The notes under the pieces were generated by a model. That model worked only from the letters and a program-made list of their open reading frames with translations, did not search any database and was not told the origin of the DNA. From UHGV virus genome UHGV-1360357: a stretch of DNA of 29,070 nt; one strand, given 5' to 3'. Both the position numbers and the translations under genes were made by a program. Every line of letters starts with the position of its first letter. Position 1 is the stretch's first letter. Shown piece after piece: positions 11,037 to 29,070 of this stretch. The DNA comes from a virus.

Positions 11037-11993
11037 TCAGTAGTTATGTACTGAAGGAGGTAATTCTTTATTCTTAAGTCTCATCCATGCGGAAAGATTC
11101 GTTGGTCCGTCTGGCTCATTGATATCAACATCTCGTGTGTGATTGATTAAAACGTCTCTCGCCATATCGATAATACGGGAGAACTCATAACCGCAGTCAT
11201 GACATCTGCCGGAATAGTTCGATTGAATTTGTTTTAGCGCCGGATACAATTCGCGGAATAATGCCTGTGAGCGGTTGGCATAATCCCATAACCATACAAG
11301 GCTGTTTGCTTCTTTTGCAGAAAGCTCGTCGGTTTTCTTCTCTTGTTTGCCGATAAATTCACCTTCAAGCACTACCCTGTGGATGTACTCTACGGCCAGC
11401 GGGATTTGTTCAATTGAAAGTTCATCAATGCTGTCAATGCCAAAACGCTGATGAACCATATTGTATGCATCGTCATAGCGAAGTCCTTTCTTTCCTACCA
11501 GCATGTTTACTGCATCGCGTAGCGGTGTGCGTTCAGCTACTGAAGTTTTACCGCCAATAGCCTTCCTCTCTTGTGTGGCAGTAACTATTGCGTCATATGC
11601 GCGGATAACCTTCAGCGCAAATGCTGCGCTAATCCACATGGCGTAGGAGTAAACAAGCTCCTTGCACACGTATGTTCCACCATATCTACCTTTCTTAGAA
11701 ATGACGGGATTCTTATTCTGCATATCCGCAGAATTAAAAATTTCATTAATCAATTCAATAGTTTCATTTCTACGCATGAAGAAAGCTGGCTGATGTTTTT
11801 CCTCCTTTCCAGACGCTACATGAAGGTCATTAAGCGAGTAACGACCCTCTGAATCCATATGAATCTTGACGTCAGAAATGATGATGCTATTAGTGCAATT
11901 TACAGTTGACTTTGCTAAGCTTGACATATCAATAATACCTCGTAAGTTTTGTTGATACCGAAGCCCTGACTGTTCCCGCAGTTGGGGCTTCAC
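11037..11993 (-). CDS. ant: KilA-N domain antirepressor-like protein at the ant position
   Basis: 318 aa; N-terminal KilA-N-like motif (...[13 protein letters not shown] ... [23 protein letters not shown]); located downstream of arc and upstream of the tailspike as P22 ant is; the symbol is by position, orthology to P22 Ant unverified. Confidence 0.6.
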
Positions 11994-23320: not shown

Positions 23321-25519
23321 TTACTGCTGTGGTTGTTGCTGAGTTGATTTTTGCAGGATGCTGCTGATGTCCATGCGCTGCGCATGGCCATGTGCCTGAC
23401 TTTTCAGGACAAGCTCTGCATCAGCACGGGCATTGTCTCCTTGCTGTTGCTGGAACTGCCCGAGCAGTTTCAGAGCCTCGCGGATATCAGATTTCTGCTG
23501 GCTATCAGCAGATGCGAGGATTTTCACAACGTTTGCCGCTGCAACCTGAGCATCAGTCTGTGCCTGGAATGCTTTAACCTGAATGGCTGCCTGCTCGTTC
23601 TGCGCTTTCTGCAATTCAGCCTGACCAGCAAGAAGCTGACCTTGCGCAGCAACCATAGCCGGATCTGGCTGACTGGCCTGTTGTTGTTTCGCCTGCTCAA
23701 CCATCTGCTGTTCTTCTGGCGTTCTCGGCTTGATAACTCCAGACAGAAGCAACTGATTGCGGTTGTATTCTTTAAGGTCGTCCATCCCTTCGCCGTCCAT
23801 ATTGTCGAGGATCATCGACGATACAAGGTCGTGTTTCGGCGTTCCTGGCGGGATAAGTGCCAGCATGGAAAGTAACGACTTAACCGTTGCGTCACGGCGA
23901 GTAGCGAACGACTGACCGACATCGACAGTCACTTCATAGTTACCCTGAGAAAGGTCGTTAAGCGCGATAACCTGCCCTGTCTGACGGTCAACCACTTCAC
24001 CAGTCATCAGCGCCACGTCATCGCTGCCGTCCTCATTAACGATACGCATCGGCGTATCACTACCATAGACCTCACGTGCCATAGAAAGCCACACGACGCC
24101 AGCGCGACGCATGGATTTAGCCATGTTGTCCATGTAGATATAGGACTGCGTATCCATCCGGTTAAAAATGCTATCAACGGTATCGGTGGCGACGTTGCTC
24201 GGCATGTTCTCAAGCTGCGACGCACCTGTAATTTGCTGAATAGCCGTTCCGGTGTACTGCAATAGCCCGGCAAGAGCTGGCGGCATTTGTGTCGGAGGTG
24301 TCCAGCCAGCAACCTGAGCTTCTGAAATGACTGTTCCGTTTTTGTCCTTCTTGCTGGTCATAGGAAGAACTGCAGGTCTTTTCTTATTCCTCTCTGCCCA
24401 GTGATTCATTAATGGGCCGGGAATGAAATCAACATCCACGATAGGAATGCCATCACCGCCAGCCTGAGTAGCGTTATCTGCAATCATGGAAACCATCAGG
24501 TTCTCAAGACGCTGTGCATCCATCGCTTTTGCTGCGTGGCCTTCGATTCGCTCCTGATTATCAACAAATGAACGACGCCCATATACCGGGATGAGAGGAA
24601 TATGTTCGCCCGGAATACGCTTAGGTTCTTCCAGCCATTCAGCGCCAGACAGAAGACCGCAATAAACTCTGCGTTTCTTCACCGTCCGCTCACCGATCAG
24701 TTCGAATGCACCATCGGTTAGCTCATCGACAATATCTTTGATTTGATCTTCATCATAGATTGCCGTTTCTCCGCTAACAGGGTTGCGCCATGCCGTGAGC
24801 TTCACCTTCTCTATGCGAACTTCGTAGTAGCGCCCAACATAGATGGCATCTGGCGTTGACCAGTCATATTGAGTGCCAGTGTCATCACGAGAAAGGCTTG
24901 CCGCGATGGAATCAGGGTATTCAGCCTCAAACGCTTTAGGCGTCATGGAGAACATTTCCATAGCCCACATAGCATCAGAACGGTCATATTGCTTGCTGTC
25001 CTGATCGAAGAAGACGCATGTCGCTGGGTCGTAAACAGGAAGAAGGCTGATGCGTCGCTGCTCGTTACTCGGATCCATTTCATCTTCGTAATCGGCACAC
25101 ATGCGGAAACAACCGAATCCACCTGTTACGGCATCATCAAATGCGTTATCACACGCTTCGCCACCGGATGTTTCCTGATAGTCAGCGCGGAATTTGCCGT
25201 TCATTTTTTCGGCTAACGCTTCCGATGCCTTATCGTCCTTCGGCCTGAATTTAACGCTGATGCGATTCTGTCGATACTCGCCAATGATGCGATCACATTC
25301 ACGGGCAATCTTATTCAGTTCAAAGCGCGGGTAATGCTCAAACCTGCCTTCATCAAATGAGTAACCAGCGTTTGTGCTGCCTTCCCACTGTGCGCCGGAT
25401 ACCCGGACGAAACGTTGAGCCTCAATAATCTGCTCACGCATATCCTGCGTTGCTGACCAGGCATTATCAAAGTTGCACAGCACCTTGCGATGCCAGTCAG
25501 TCATCTTTTTTTCTGCCAT
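23321..25519 (-). CDS. portal protein (P22 gp1 family)
   Basis: 732 aa; alignable with P22 portal (EHIPLIPVYG, KPRTPEEQQ..., Gln-rich C-terminal barrel helix); synteny after large terminase. Confidence 0.9.
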   Translation of the reverse strand: MAEKKMTDWHRKVLCNFDNAWSATQDMREQIIEAQRFVRVSGAQWEGSTNAGYSFDEGRFEHYPRFELNKIARECDRIIGEYRQNRISVKFRPKDDKASEALAEKMNGKFRADYQETSGGEACDNAFDDAVTGGFGCFRMCADYEDEMDPSNEQRRISLLPVYDPATCVFFDQDSKQYDRSDAMWAMEMFSMTPKAFEAEYPDSIAASLSRDDTGTQYDWSTPDAIYVGRYYEVRIEKVKLTAWRNPVSGETAIYDEDQIKDIVDELTDGAFELIGERTVKKRRVYCGLLSGAEWLEEPKRIPGEHIPLIPVYGRRSFVDNQERIEGHAAKAMDAQRLENLMVSMIADNATQAGGDGIPIVDVDFIPGPLMNHWAERNKKRPAVLPMTSKKDKNGTVISEAQVAGWTPPTQMPPALAGLLQYTGTAIQQITGASQLENMPSNVATDTVDSIFNRMDTQSYIYMDNMAKSMRRAGVVWLSMAREVYGSDTPMRIVNEDGSDDVALMTGEVVDRQTGQVIALNDLSQGNYEVTVDVGQSFATRRDATVKSLLSMLALIPPGTPKHDLVSSMILDNMDGEGMDDLKEYNRNQLLLSGVIKPRTPEEQQMVEQAKQQQASQPDPAMVAAQGQLLAGQAELQKAQNEQAAIQVKAFQAQTDAQVAAANVVKILASADSQQKSDIREALKLLGQFQQQQGDNARADAELVLKSQAHGHAQRMDISSILQKSTQQQPQQ

Positions 25520-25520
25520 A

Positions 25521-26936
25521 TCAACCTACACCACAAGGAATTGAGTAACTGGAATAGTCGGGTTGCGCAGCCGACTCCGGGCAATGCATACACATCATCA
25601 GCGCATCAGCCAGGTTAGGAGATGGAATCCCGAGCTTCTGTTTCATTTCGACCTTAGTCATAAGCTCCAGCTTCCCGTTGTTATTGAATTTGCGCTGAAT
25701 CTGCGTCAGTTCTGCAAACAGCTTCTCCAGCATATTCTCGCCTATCGCTTCTTTGTCGAAACTCAGCATGTCGTCGGGGTCTGCATACTCACCGTAAACA
25801 ACCGCCCGATATGTCAGATACAGCCTGTCAGCCAGCGCGTAATAGAATTGCGCTCGCTTATTGCGGAACACATCACCAATAGTGCGAACGTTGTCGCCCT
25901 GTACGACTTCATCAGCCCATGCTCCGGCCTGATACGGCGCATCTTCATCGAATGGCGATTCACTGCCCTTGAACATCGTGGCGGTGATTTTCTTGCCGGA
26001 GAACGCTTCCGTTGTCTGTCTGCGTAGGCCCGCACCGACGCCATCACCATCCCACAGGTAATGGTCAGCGCCGTCTTCAATTGCCAGCGAAGTAGCCCAG
26101 TCAGCACCCTCGTTGATATCCATCAGCAGACCTTCGGCAATGCGCTTAACTACCGAACCGTGACGCGATGCATAACCTTTAGCATCTGGCCCTGTATCTG
26201 ATGGGTCATGCGCAGAGACAACAGCGCCTTTCGCTTTCCATCCGAGTTTCTTGTGCGCATCTGTTGCGGCTTCAAGCCATTCACGTTTGATGATTGCCAT
26301 ATCACTTGCGCTTACTGGCTCACCAAGCCAGATATGACGATACAGTGTCGGATTTCTGCGTTTGCACTCTTCCATCTCCAGACGGAGAACTTCAGGAAAG
26401 TGCGGGTTGTCGGTGTAGTTCACCGTCAGCAGACAAATATCATCAGGAGGATTTACGACGAATCGCTGATAGGTATCGTCGAGGATGTTCTTCGGGTTAA
26501 AGCTCACCCATATTTCAGAGAACGGCTTACGGATGGTTGGAATCAGGATATCCCATGATTCCTTCGTTACCGCTTCCGCTTCTTCCACCCAGCAGATATC
26601 AATGCCTTCGAGCGATTTAATCTTCGTCGGGTTGTTTTTGATGCCGTAGAACATGAATTCAGCATTCGTTCCGAGATGACGAATCATTGAGCGCTGAATT
26701 TCAAACTCAGCCGAATACCCTTCACGCTCGATGGTATCTTCAAGCAACCGGATTACCGAATCGCTGATACTGTTTTGCAGTTCACGAGCGCAGAGAATAC
26801 GCACAGGCTGCCGACGCGCCGCTTCAACAAGCAGCCTCGCAATTGCCCATGACTTACCGCTACCTCGACCGCCTTTGGCGACTTTGTAGCGATGCGCCTC
26901 AATGAACGGTTCAAAGATAGGATTAATCGAGGTCAT
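25521..26936 (-). CDS. terminase large subunit (Sf6 gp2-like)
   Basis: 471 aa; Walker A KGGRGSGKS, Walker B/catalytic ICWVEEAE, C-terminal RNase H-like nuclease domain. Confidence 0.9.
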   Translation of the reverse strand: MTSINPIFEPFIEAHRYKVAKGGRGSGKSWAIARLLVEAARRQPVRILCARELQNSISDSVIRLLEDTIEREGYSAEFEIQRSMIRHLGTNAEFMFYGIKNNPTKIKSLEGIDICWVEEAEAVTKESWDILIPTIRKPFSEIWVSFNPKNILDDTYQRFVVNPPDDICLLTVNYTDNPHFPEVLRLEMEECKRRNPTLYRHIWLGEPVSASDMAIIKREWLEAATDAHKKLGWKAKGAVVSAHDPSDTGPDAKGYASRHGSVVKRIAEGLLMDINEGADWATSLAIEDGADHYLWDGDGVGAGLRRQTTEAFSGKKITATMFKGSESPFDEDAPYQAGAWADEVVQGDNVRTIGDVFRNKRAQFYYALADRLYLTYRAVVYGEYADPDDMLSFDKEAIGENMLEKLFAELTQIQRKFNNNGKLELMTKVEMKQKLGIPSPNLADALMMCMHCPESAAQPDYSSYSIPCGVG

Positions 26937-27355
26937 TTTCCGAATAGAGTGCTCATCGGTGATGTTTCAATCTGAATTGCGCCGCCGTCCTTACCGACAA
27001 GCTCGTTAGTTACCCTGTCGCCATACTTACGGGGATTCATTCGGGCCAGCGCCCATTTGCGGGTATCAACGCGAAGTCTTGCCTTTGCCACCTCAGCAGC
27101 ATCTGGAATCGCATTGTCAGCAATTTCGAATATCTCTTCGAAAATAGAATCAGCTCGTGCCTCAGTTGCCTTCGCGTACTTGTCGCGAAAATCCTCATGC
27201 TTTGCCAACCAGCGGAAAACAGTGGACTTATCCGGCATACCAGGACGCTTACATACTTTCAGCAAACTTTCGCCAGAAGAAAGCAACGAGCAGATATCGT
27301 CAGCCACCTCCGGCATATAATCAGAGGGGCGACCAGCTTTTGGTTCAGTCGCCAT
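26933..27355 (-). CDS. terminase small subunit (Sf6 gp1-like); alternative start at 27361
   Basis: MATEPKAGRPSDYMPEVADDICSLLSSGESLLKVCKRPGMPDKSTVFRWLAKHEDFRDKYAKATEARADSIFEEIFEIADN... recognised as Sf6-type small terminase with N-terminal HTH; ATGA overlap with TerL. Confidence 0.8.
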   Translation of the reverse strand: MATEPKAGRPSDYMPEVADDICSLLSSGESLLKVCKRPGMPDKSTVFRWLAKHEDFRDKYAKATEARADSIFEEIFEIADNAIPDAAEVAKARLRVDTRKWALARMNPRKYGDRVTNELVGKDGGAIQIETSPMSTLFGK

Positions 27356-27377
27356 ATTCATCTCACTTAATTGTCAT

Positions 27378-27557
27378 TTCAGGCTGAGGACTCTTTCGCG
27401 CTTTCAATCAGTGACTGCTTCAGCAATTCGAGTGTGCCAATCGCCTCGCATAAACTGATTTCACCATCGTAATCATGGATGACGCTTTCCAGCCGCTCGT
27501 ATAGCTCTTGAGTAATTGGGAATTTCTTCTCCTTACCAAGATCAACGACGCTTGTCA
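27378..27557 (-). CDS. hypothetical small protein (59 aa)
   Basis: Found by hand; ATG at 27557 (complement), AGGA-type RBS; acidic helical peptide MTSVVDLGKEKKFPITQELYERLESVIHDYDGEISLCEAIGTLELLKQSLIESAKESSA. Confidence 0.4.
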
Positions 27558-27567
27558 TAGAGGATTC

Positions 27568-27855
27568 CTATAATTTTGAATATCCAGACTCAAATACCTC
27601 AGCAGGAGAATATGATTCATATCCATCCTCATAGACAACGTAATAGCCTCCAGACATTGGTCGGTGCTTACAGATATATTCCGCGCTAACATCAAATGCT
27701 GCGTATTTCTTATCATCCGGATGAATAATTGCCCCATAACTAGAAGAGCCAGTCTTACCAGACTGATCTGGGTTTGGCTTATGTTCTATAGAGCCAATCT
27801 TCAGGGCACGAACTTTTTTGTGGCACTGGTATCTCGGCATTTCTTGTTCAGTCAT
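27568..27855 (-). CDS. hypothetical protein (95 aa)
   Basis: Track ORF; compact spacing with neighbours; unknown function. Confidence 0.5.
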   Translation of the reverse strand: MTEQEMPRYQCHKKVRALKIGSIEHKPNPDQSGKTGSSSYGAIIHPDDKKYAAFDVSAEYICKHRPMSGGYYVVYEDGYESYSPAEVFESGYSKL

Positions 27856-27858
27856 CTC

Positions 27859-28101
27859 TTACACTCCGGTGGTGAACAGGTCTAACGCTTCCTTCGATTT
27901 ACGCACCGCTTCAAATGTGCGGATCGTGATATCTGAATTAGCGCCGCCTGACTGGAAGTGAATTTTGAATAGCTCAAGCTTCAGCTCGTCAGTGCCAATG
28001 AATTGAAATGCTTCCTCTGCGGCTGCGTTCTGGTTCATGACCAGTTTGTAAATCTCTAACTGGAATTTCTGTTCTTCAGTCATGGGAATAATCTCTGCCA
28101 T
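27859..28101 (-). CDS. hypothetical protein (80 aa)
   Basis: Track ORF with ACGGAG RBS; unknown function. Confidence 0.5.
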   Translation of the reverse strand: MAEIIPMTEEQKFQLEIYKLVMNQNAAAEEAFQFIGTDELKLELFKIHFQSGGANSDITIRTFEAVRKSKEALDLFTTGV

Positions 28102-28459
28102 TGTTGGCTCCGTTTATCCGTTAAAAGGGATATCAGTTAAGTTATCCCGTGTAGGGTATAAGCCATTGTCGAGACCACTCATTGAATGGCCTCTGCAATA
28201 ACCGATGTCTTTCCATCAGTCCGCCACCACAAAGAATCTTTTTTGCCATAAGGCTGGAGGTTCATCTTTCAGTGGCTGCCAGTGTTATTTCCCCACTTAC
28301 TGGCTTGGGTTGTTTCGTGGTACTGCTGTTAATTAGTGACCAGAAATTAACTCCGGTTTCATTATCAAGCCCACCCGTAGATGGGCTTTGTAATGGATAG
28401 CCGTTGCTCAGTTCTCGTAATGCTTTGATTTTTCCGATAACGCAGTTTTGCGTTTGCCA

Positions 28460-28981
28460 TCAGCACGCGATATCGAGAGTCAACTGCAGTTGCTCGCGCC
28501 AGTACTCAACATTTGCTTCAATAACCGGCTTATCCCATCGCCAGCGAGCCATCTCTCTTGCCCCATTGCTGGCTTTTGATTTCCGGTCATCGCGAATGCG
28601 ACATGCTTGCTCATATTTCTGCTGCTCAGTCAGTTCACCGCGAAGCAGACTATCAATGTGCAGGTCGCACCATACGGAGAATTTCGGATCGCACCATCTT
28701 GCAAAGGCAACTGATAACTTTGGATGCAGCCATGTTCCGCCACCCCTGTCCTTTCGTGCCTTGCTTGTTTTTACATACCCGGAATCACGGGTATGTAGAA
28801 TTTTCGATGGTTCACCTGAATAAACCTCATCCAGAGCTCTAACGTATTCGAGAGTTTCAGCGTTGGACAACCAGTGATCCAGACGCTTCCCGAAACGTTT
28901 TGCAATATCAGTGGCATTAATCCAGCCATCAGTATTGAAGCGGATAGGTTCGCCTTTGTAATTCAGTGGAACGATATTCAT
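28460..28981 (-). CDS. KilA-N domain protein (173 aa)
   Basis: Canonical KilA-N motifs: INATDIAKRFGKRLDHWL ... GGGTWLHPKLSVAFARWCDPKFSVWCDLHI. Confidence 0.7.
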   Translation of the reverse strand: MNIVPLNYKGEPIRFNTDGWINATDIAKRFGKRLDHWLSNAETLEYVRALDEVYSGEPSKILHTRDSGYVKTSKARKDRGGGTWLHPKLSVAFARWCDPKFSVWCDLHIDSLLRGELTEQQKYEQACRIRDDRKSKASNGAREMARWRWDKPVIEANVEYWREQLQLTLDIAC

Positions 28982-29070
28982 AGCGTCTTACCTTTTAGAA
29001 AGATGAGCCTGTTCGCACAGAAAAGCCGCCCCGAGATGGTCGCCACCATATACGGCAGTTCTCAGGCTCA

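Follow-up and report, generated by a model that had tools for sequence, protein, structure and literature searches.

Between positions 27378 and 28981 of the virus genome UHGV-1360357 (29,070 nucleotides, the whole of which is referred to here as the window) lies part of a minus-strand, Q/gp23-dependent late operon of a P22-like phage (Lederbergvirus), in which a 358-bp gap (28102-28459) separates a KilA-N domain gene from a small gene, ORF80. Here we describe this gap as a widely conserved, structured, non-coding spacer, and we describe the family of hairpins to which two of its structures belong and which probably acts in cis on the late mRNA.

The region is 89 to 98% identical to Lederbergvirus phages including E212, EC.P3, HK620, ST64T, P22, and BTP1, and its late strand reads lysis cassette, optional gene(s), gap, ORF80, optional gene(s), ORF59C homologue, and terminase. 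In the window (all of the following features being on the minus strand), the KilA-N domain gene (173 amino acids [aa], 28460..28981; open reading frame [ORF] list, Pfam PF04383, PHROG 129) precedes the gap. The gap is followed by ORF80 with its ribosome-binding site (RBS) (27859..28111, with GGAG at 28111..28108 and an 80-aa coding sequence at 27859-28101; Pfam PF10834, DUF2560), a 95-aa cargo gene (27568..27855; PHROG 11049), a 59-aa ORF homologous to hkbN of HK620 and ORF59C of P22 (27379..27558; PHROG 3546, E value of 1.9e-41), and the small terminase subunit gene of the Sf6 type (26933..27361; Pfam PF20901, E value of 1.8e-44), which is the first head assembly gene downstream and precedes the large terminase and portal genes of the ORF list. 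A sequence-only reading of this DNA had reported these genes and had placed the 358-bp gap at the same coordinates, and the ORF list returns identical genes on the minus strand. Its description of three short unknown ORFs holds for their sizes and positions but not for their status, since the 80-aa protein is a DUF2560 member and the 59-aa protein is the hkbN/ORF59C homologue.

The gap is non-coding and widely conserved

The gap contains no convincing ORF, as the sequence-only reading had maintained; the small ORFs that can be drawn in it are truncated, frameshifted, or fused in relatives. A 35-aa ORF (28249..28142) is cut short at 27 codons in P22, continues in frame into DUF2560 in ST64T, has lost its start codon in locus L026 (numbers of this kind denote the loci compared), and is frameshifted in L042. 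In addition, a 2-nt indel in P22 breaks every frame of the gap, including that of a 43-aa ORF on the plus strand. The E. coli sequences that match the gap are mostly left without any annotation by PGAP. Such matches are common: the gap finds 209 phage records at 80 to 99% identity, which include HK97-like cos phages and partly Stx phages, and 2556 of 5426 complete E. coli genomes contain parts of it, with at least 80% of its length present in 659 genomes. We rejected a function as packaging site, as the same gap precedes terminases of the P22 type, the Sf6 type, and the HK97 type (cos, HNH).

Conservation within the gap is uneven. A block of ~135 nt (28205..28339, minus strand) is conserved in the diversity profile with no reading frame conserved, and its core at 28300-28211 is nearly invariant, with 0 to 3 polymorphic sites per 15 nt against 5 to 10 in the ORF80 coding sequence of the same loci, a comparison that is conservative because the loci were chosen for near-identical ORF80. 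On its upstream side, the alignment and the diversity profile show a variable linker (28340..28359, minus strand) with two homologous alleles and, in HK620-type phages, a third, unrelated form that is 58 nt longer; the mean minor-allele frequency at 28345-28331 is 0.198.

Two kinds of existing annotation overlap the gap DNA. Proteins of 118 aa annotated as "DUF2560" (orf-118 of ST64T, L006 2151-2507, and L002 3321-3677) owe their extension to gap sequence read in frame, and they probably start 38 codons early, because a conserved GGAG site precedes M39. "ORF25" of P22 (L005 2160-2261) has its ATG in the loop of the downstream hairpin described below and extends into the terminator region of pid. 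Since its counterpart in the window has 22 aa and a different end, this ORF is unlikely to be a gene.

Two paralogous hairpins bracket the conserved block

The sequence-only reading had pointed to an inverted repeat, AAGCCCA-N8-TGGGCTT, in the gap. The repeat is indeed present at 28367-28388, as the sole match in the window (0.01 expected by chance), but it is only part of a larger, 36-nt hairpin, HP1 (28360..28395, minus strand), composed of a 5-bp lower stem, a CA/GA internal loop, a 9-bp upper stem, and a UACG loop (CAUUA / CA / AAGCCCAUC-UACG-GGUGGGCUU / GA / UAAUG). A paralogous hairpin, HP2 (28164..28200, minus strand; UAUUG / CA / GAGGCCAUUC-AAU-GAGUGGUCUC / GA / CAAUG), lies 195 nt downstream and has a 10-bp upper stem, so that HP1 and HP2 bracket the ~135-nt block. 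The two hairpins, of 36 to 37 nt, have fold energies of -19.1 (HP1) and -17.9 kcal/mol (HP2), and the RNA fold of the whole gap gives a z score of -6.4 for the minus strand and -3.7 for the plus strand. RNA folding also places a small hairpin, HP3 (GGGAUA-N10-UAUCCC followed by UUUUAA; 28127..28148, minus strand), beyond HP2. Its segment, in which diversity is very low, is a filler: the pid gene unit stands in its place in P22 and BTP1, and it is deleted in ST64T-type phages, with the P22 and ST64T junctions at ~28150-28157 and 28115.

The hairpins covary beyond what controls would give, which answers the search for structured RNA that the sequence-only reading had recommended. In a MAFFT alignment of 25 distinct members (A2), 97.7% of cells are paired and 8 of the 14 pairs have changed on both sides, and none of 500 shuffles reaches its covariation score; controls in which the partners were slid out of register are 33 to 53% paired. 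The covariance model seeded with this alignment, R1, finds HP1 (57.6 bits, E value of 3.7e-12) and HP2 (51.8 bits, E value of 1.1e-10) as its two copies in the window and gives 131 matches in 84 loci, all on the late-sense strand except for two weak reverse echoes, with 96.7% of cells paired and 9 of 14 pairs changed on both sides. A further scan of IMG/VR used only the flanks of the hairpin (ATTACAAAG-N12-24-CTTGATAATG) and returned at least 120 loci. Among the matches listed, it comprised 43 distinct variants, ~40 of them with 5 to 8 consecutive inner pairs, and at least 10 unrelated inner stems. The substitutions that distinguish HP2 in P22, E212, ST64T, and Serratia keep the pairs throughout, and divergent DUF2560 loci (Serratia, Shimwellia, and several metagenomic phages) carry different but complementary upper stems and sometimes different lower stems. 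These divergent loci were obtained through exact look-ups of distant homologues, the scan of species-representative genomes having returned six near-identical loci only. Outside HP1 and HP2, RNAalifold on 17 window-type gaps found too little variation to score covariation of other helices, those of the 135-nt block included.

Pairing appears to be selected on the strand of the late mRNA, because the upper stems of the 43 variants listed contain 59 G·U pairs against 0 A·C pairs and because the sense fold is the more stable one in 40 of these 43, by a mean of 4.55 kcal/mol. The hairpins are thus conserved by structure rather than by sequence and fold preferentially on the late-mRNA strand.

The family extends to HK97, where an unannotated gap between gene 61 and the HNH gene (L233 38637-39053) contains HP2 in intact form (51.8 bits) together with a copy of HP1 in which two pairs are broken (34.6 bits); the R1 search found HK97 members in this homologous gap only and no family member in phage lambda. 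Two further loci (L104 4954-4984 and L093 ~2880-2925) keep the CA/GA loop and the upper stem but have UUCUG/CAGAA in place of CAUUA/UAAUG as lower stem, and the family is probably broader than R1 captures. Within the window, R1 gives one more, weak match at the start of the portal gene (25462-25492, minus strand; 16.4 bits, E value of 0.11), with the lower stem and the CA/GA loop kept and a short upper part, which is probably due to chance. A scan of 27000-29070 against Rfam 15, with E values of up to 10, gave chance-level matches only (13.8 to 18 bits against gathering thresholds of 37 to 70; E values of 1.3 to 8.8), and a literature search for the hairpin sequence gave no match. A hairpin family with a conserved lower stem and a CA/GA loop, being absent from Rfam and from the literature searched, is apparently undescribed.

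Hairpins follow unrelated late genes and mark mosaic junctions

Among the 120 matches listed from the flank-only scan, 90 hairpins lie 0 to 19 nt beyond the end of a sense ORF of at least 40 aa, and the 120 instances represent 57 distinct upstream and 56 distinct downstream contexts. The genes found upstream include Rha, hkbL-like genes, a tail tube protein, a Tad2-like gene, and small membrane ORFs. In the relatives of the window itself, at least seven unrelated sequences lead up to the hairpin, and conservation sets in precisely at CATTAC. A unit consisting of an RBS, a PF13876 gene, and a hairpin is found, 92% identical, at two positions of the operon, namely, before the holin gene in L107 and in the gap slot in L052, and the homology between the two stops at the last base of the hairpin. 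Hairpin edges therefore coincide with mosaic junctions, and the hairpins usually stand directly after the stop codons of unrelated late genes.

Recombination between the hairpins themselves has also left traces. One class of loci, the 98-nt class, corresponds to a deletion between HP1 and HP2, and the crossovers of such deletions differ in L037, L044, and L047, lying in and beside the 3' arm. Because the crossover points vary, these deletions fit homologous recombination at short homologies, not a site-specific enzyme.

A known slot for accessory genes, here without cargo

P22 and BTP1 match the window at 28339-28143 and again at 28115-27864, with 93 to 96% identity. Between the equivalents of 28143 and 28115, the two phages carry ~630 bp with pid on the opposite strand (L005 2200-2829 in P22), where the window has 27 bp. 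We therefore rejected the presence of pid or a pid remnant in the window, as the ~630 bp of P22 have no counterpart. The pid site has been described as empty or as holding another insert in related phages (Cenens et al. 2013, PMC3573128), and pid has its own mapped promoter and terminator (Wolput et al. 2022, PMC8835761); the -10 box of this promoter is a weak AATCCT. The IMG/VR loci that share this ORF80 contain, inserted at ~28203-28208 at the downstream end of the conserved block, no fewer than eight different cargos of 45 to 246 aa on the sense strand, and they rejoin the window sequence at 28206, 28194, or 28184.

Sequence comparison thus identifies the gap as a known site for accessory genes, located between the lysis cassette and the head genes, that stands empty here. 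The window shares the genomic site and the flanking DNA with the P22 pid locus but lacks pid, its promoter, and its terminator, and thereby resembles the empty state of PS34 and HK620. The slot is already known from the work on pid, and neither KilA-N nor DUF2560 stands out within its known family; the flanking hairpins and the conserved block are not described in PMC3573128 and PMC8835761 as read here.

The KilA-N gene, the 95-aa ORF, and neighboring cargo

The 173-aa protein upstream of the gap is a KilA-N domain protein, as claimed from the sequence alone, with a Pfam PF04383 match over residues 7 to 114 (85.5 bits against a cut-off of 23.8; E value of 2.8e-24). At its position, P22 and BTP1 carry Rha, HK620 carries a different KilA-N gene (hkbK) together with hkbL, a Serratia prophage carries an Acb2/Tad1-like gene, and ST64T and L101 carry nothing. 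The gene is not an essential late regulator, because relatives have other genes or none there; from this comparison it is dispensable, interchangeable cargo in the slot following the lysis cassette. No sigma-70-like site was seen on the sense strand, either before it or in the gap, in a scan that detects consensus-like promoters only. Screening of four proteins of the region against NCBIfam gave no match, and the only hit of the defense scan was a weak, partial PADLOC match of the KilA-N protein (24 bits over 30 residues), which the sequence-only reading had put forward as a candidate regulator or abortive-infection (Abi) protein.

Between the KilA-N stop codon and HP1 lies what RNA folding and alignment mark as a KilA-N-linked 3' untranslated tail (28400..28459, minus strand) with a small hairpin, AACGCAAAACUGCGUU, at 28454..28439; this sequence precedes HP1 only where the same KilA-N allele is present (E212, L002, L008, L052, L068, and L069). 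Inside the KilA-N gene, a 13-bp inverted repeat followed by TTTT (TTTTACATACCCGG-AATCAC-GGGTATGTAGAA; 28769-28800, plus strand) resembles a terminator oriented opposite to the late operon, and E212 has it as well; the weak match to Rfam mir-10 that falls there was discarded as chance. Upstream of the KilA-N gene, ~60 to 80 nt past window position 29070, E212 has a canonical sense terminator, AGCCTCGCATTCGCGGGGCT plus TTTTTT, between Rz and KilA-N (L001 2419-2438), which implies that the late operon holds true terminators needing read-through. The sequence-only reading had counted the KilA-N protein as the second of its kind in the window. The first that this implies, a KilA-N or antirepressor-like gene, is presumably a 318-aa ORF upstream of the tailspike gene (11037..11993, minus strand), which has a weak 21% identity to the KilA-N protein (E value of 0.005).

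Downstream of the gap, the 80-aa protein matches DUF2560 over its full length (profile positions 1 to 72 of 72; E value of 2.6e-42) and is homologous to ORF80 of P22 and hkbM of HK620. All of its 90 homologues are from Enterobacterales or metagenomes, and its start context, GGAGCC..ATG, recurs in ST64T, Serratia, and others. Four contigs labeled as Cellvibrionaceae, Bacillota, or Collinsella metagenome-assembled genomes (L089 to L092) carry the E. coli phage region at 96 to 97% protein identity, and these labels most likely reflect binning contamination. The DNA of the 59-aa ORF is 96 to 99% identical to that of HK620, P22, and BTP1. The 95-aa ORF, by comparison, is not found in P22 or HK620 and occurs in 3 of the ~110 loci fetched; its protein is 100% identical in phage CurroJimenez_Bas106 and has distant homologues in Ralstonia and Pseudomonas phages. 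Judged by this distribution, the KilA-N gene and the 95-aa ORF are dispensable cargo in two further slots of the same region.

The 95-aa protein resembles the N-terminal part of longer phage proteins, as only the first half of the PHROG 11049 and 872 profiles (~170 to 180 positions) is matched. Its C-terminal motif, GY.S.SP..VFE, recurs by eye in the N-terminal half of a Tad2-like (Thoeris anti-defense) protein in L127, and the ORF may be a stand-alone version of the N-terminal domain of that protein. In this viral contig, a hairpin of the family stands directly after the Tad2-like gene. A gene of the Acb2/Tad1-hairpin family occupies the slot following the lysis cassette in a Serratia marcescens prophage (L095 2371-2652). 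Because of these two genes, the slots may collect anti-defense genes.

A probable cis-acting role in the late mRNA

Taking these observations together, we favor, with a probability of roughly 0.55, a reading in which the gap is a non-coding, empty slot bracketed by hairpins that act in cis on the late mRNA and whose flanks serve as recombination boundaries; for the hairpins themselves, a cis-acting late-mRNA structure with conserved flanks that double as such boundaries is the most likely role. On the long late transcript, the hairpins would form stable 3'-flanking structures that could serve as barriers to 3' exonucleases, as processing signals, or as weak attenuators of transcription, which would uncouple the stability or expression of the optional cargo from those of the essential head genes downstream. 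RNase III cleaves duplex RNA that spans some two helical turns and frequently contains an internal loop; the hairpins, with 14 to 15 bp and a 2x2 internal loop, are shorter than classical sites. At the level of DNA, the conserved bases ATTRCA.AAG...CTT.GAYAATG could offer short homologies to phage or host recombinases, which would swap, insert, or delete units of a gene plus its hairpin.

Several points weigh against this proposal. The near-invariance of the 135-nt block does not follow from the hairpins and could stem from a recent sweep or frequent gene conversion instead of function. Some relatives lack gap and hairpin altogether (L101, with 18 nt between Rz and DUF2560, as well as L107 and L106), so that the element is dispensable. 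The A2 seed was pre-filtered by folding energy, a bias for which the flank-only scan was added; the scan removes most of it but itself fixes the three outermost pairs of the upper stem. Finally, the evidence that points to a role at the RNA level is strand asymmetry and position, and single-stranded DNA also tolerates G·T mismatches, so a DNA hairpin on the same strand is possible.

Alternatively, the hairpins could be intrinsic terminators of the accessory units, which would stop unmodified polymerase in the lysogen and thus shield the head genes from transcription that is leaky or driven by the cargo, while polymerase modified by Q/gp23 reads through in the lytic phase. Their location directly 3' of ORFs, always in sense orientation, their G+C-rich stems with stable tetraloops (UACG and UCCG), and the divergent member in L096, which is followed by a run of six U, would suit this function, and canonical terminators do occur in such late operons (after Rz in E212 and mEp235, with many putative ones annotated in HK97). 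However, nearly all members are followed by GAUAAUG(G/A), with tails of GAUAAUGA or GACAAUGG and no U-tract, the six-U run being found in L096 only. A conserved lower stem and a CA/GA internal loop are foreign to terminators. Scans for terminators that covered the window region and E212 call no family hairpin on the sense strand, and the HK97 and mEp235 records mark other terminators and not these hairpins. We therefore consider termination unlikely, if worth serious attention. We regard as very unlikely that the ~135-nt block is or contains a trans-acting small RNA, whether processed from the late transcript or made from an unrecognized promoter. The neighboring protein-coding gene is less conserved than the block, which lies in a strongly structured gap present in part in about half of the complete E. 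coli genomes, and prophages are known to supply regulatory small RNAs (AgvB, AsxR, and the Pas RNAs). Yet the promoter and terminator scans found no promoter-like site or U-tract terminator on either strand of the block, its invariance leaves covariation too little to act on, and Rfam gives no match (the best hit, Proteo-phage-1, scores 16.8 bits against a gathering score of 42). The known prophage small RNAs AgvB, AsxR, STnc100, and Esr41 are all in Rfam and none matched, and the Pas RNAs sit between Q and the holin gene, not at the gap. In gene-level data from lysogens, moreover, the BTP1 expression table has no non-coding RNA between rha and pid, and the LF82 prophage Gally, which carries gap sequence, shows no gene above background except the repressor. 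Since these data are at gene level and from lysogens, and since the core at 28300-28211 is nearly invariant, there is still room for a processed late-phase RNA. Of the two functions that the sequence-only reading had offered for the gap, a late-transcript element or a small RNA, the conserved sense-strand structure thus fits the former as a cis-acting element, whereas a separate small RNA finds no support in promoter, U-tract, or Rfam match.

It is also tempting to compare the hairpins with integron attC sites, which are likewise imperfect palindromes 3' of a cassette gene, conserved in structure and strand-specific. They could then be single-stranded-DNA recombination sites of a cassette system whose recombinase moves units of a gene plus hairpin, in line with the RBS-ORF-hairpin units at different operon positions, whose homology ends exactly at the hairpin, with the great diversity of contexts on either side, and with conservation of the structure on one strand only. 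But the crossovers between HP1 and HP2 vary as in homologous recombination rather than showing the fixed cleavage of attC sites, the consensus contains no core site (GTTRRRY) by inspection, and no recombinase gene was called near the hairpins in the loci examined, a linked integrase being the rule for attC; we judge such a system highly improbable. The least credible reading, to which we give hardly any weight, is that small proteins, one or several, are made from the gap: the 35-aa ORF (MAKKIL...), a 28-aa ORF (MNLQPYGKK...), or the 43-aa ORF on the plus strand (MSFHQS...). These ORFs are present in the window, some records annotate the 118-aa "DUF2560" or the P22 "ORF25" over parts of the gap DNA, and, by our reading, three of the five most frequent polymorphisms would leave the peptide of the plus-strand frame unchanged. 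None of the ORFs has a Shine-Dalgarno sequence, though, and the 35-aa ORF matches no Pfam or PHROG family; its end differs between P22 (27 aa), the window (35 aa), and the ST64T fusion (whose real start is probably M39), and the start-codon loss, the frameshifts, and the 2-nt indel of P22 break each frame. We rejected the small proteins on this comparison of frames and stops among P22, HK620, E212, ST64T, and the IMG/VR loci.

A bolder version of the cis-acting reading would make the hairpin, with its 5-bp lower stem, invariant CA/GA loop, and covarying upper stem of 8 to 10 bp, a new class of phage cis-regulatory RNA, read by a specific nuclease or RNA-binding protein. Sitting 3' of every optional late gene, it would at the same time be a portable junction through which late accessory genes, including anti-defense genes of the Tad2 and Acb2/Tad1 types, become exchangeable among lambdoid phages, with the 135-nt block as a further functional RNA. 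We consider this full set of claims quite unlikely to hold.

Relation to known elements and implications

The cis-acting hairpins proposed here have several relatives among known elements. REP elements, as in the malEFG operon, are intercistronic hairpins that stabilize mRNA. Like them, the hairpins are stable stem-loops directly 3' of a cistron in a polycistronic transcript, in one orientation; unlike them, they are phage-borne, tied to cassette boundaries, and without sequence similarity to REP. Arbiol et al. (2010) reportedly described promoter-early stem-loop (PeSL) cassettes in T4-type phages, in which short regulatory stem-loops likewise recur on the flanks of small variable genes and are a proposed cause of their shuffling by recombination. 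PeSLs, however, include an early promoter and belong to early hyperplastic regions of virulent phages, whereas the hairpins are promoterless and belong to the late operons of temperate lambdoid phages.

Short conserved boundary sequences are said to have been proposed by Susskind and Botstein, and for HK620 by Clark et al. in 2001, to mediate the exchange of modules among lambdoid phages. The hairpins share with these their place exactly at mosaic junctions with unrelated neighbors, and deletions occur between two copies; they differ in that they are also selected for base pairing on one strand and are therefore more than a passive patch of homology. A proposal of conserved boundary sequences for lambdoid module exchange is also cited in PMC3029335. 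The same paper and PMC2629481 quote the definition of a moron, in lambdoid phages of the HK97 and HK022 type, as a promoter, a gene, and a terminator inserted in an operon. The loci described here resemble morons in having optional genes between essential late genes, each followed by a stem-loop, but a scan for consensus-like promoters found no promoter-like site before KilA-N or the cargo genes, and the 3' stem-loops have no canonical U-tract and share a conserved lower stem and internal loop. The hairpin family is thus best seen as a variant of intercistronic stem-loops and of lambdoid boundary sequences.

For the window, the consequences are modest: the gap does not reflect a missed annotation, the ORFs within it are not genes, KilA-N is optional cargo, and at the level of genes the locus is ordinary. 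For temperate phages, the finding bears on the old question of whether mosaic junctions arise through recombination at conserved linkers or through illegitimate joining followed by selection. The hairpin is a concrete and abundant junction element, found in at least 120 viral contigs, with parts of the gap in about half of the complete E. coli genomes, and its presence at junctions together with selected RNA pairing means that the linker hypothesis can be put to the test with straightforward mutants of HK620, P22, or HK97. Because it marks slots of optional genes, some of them anti-defense genes, the hairpin could also serve as a search handle for new accessory genes.

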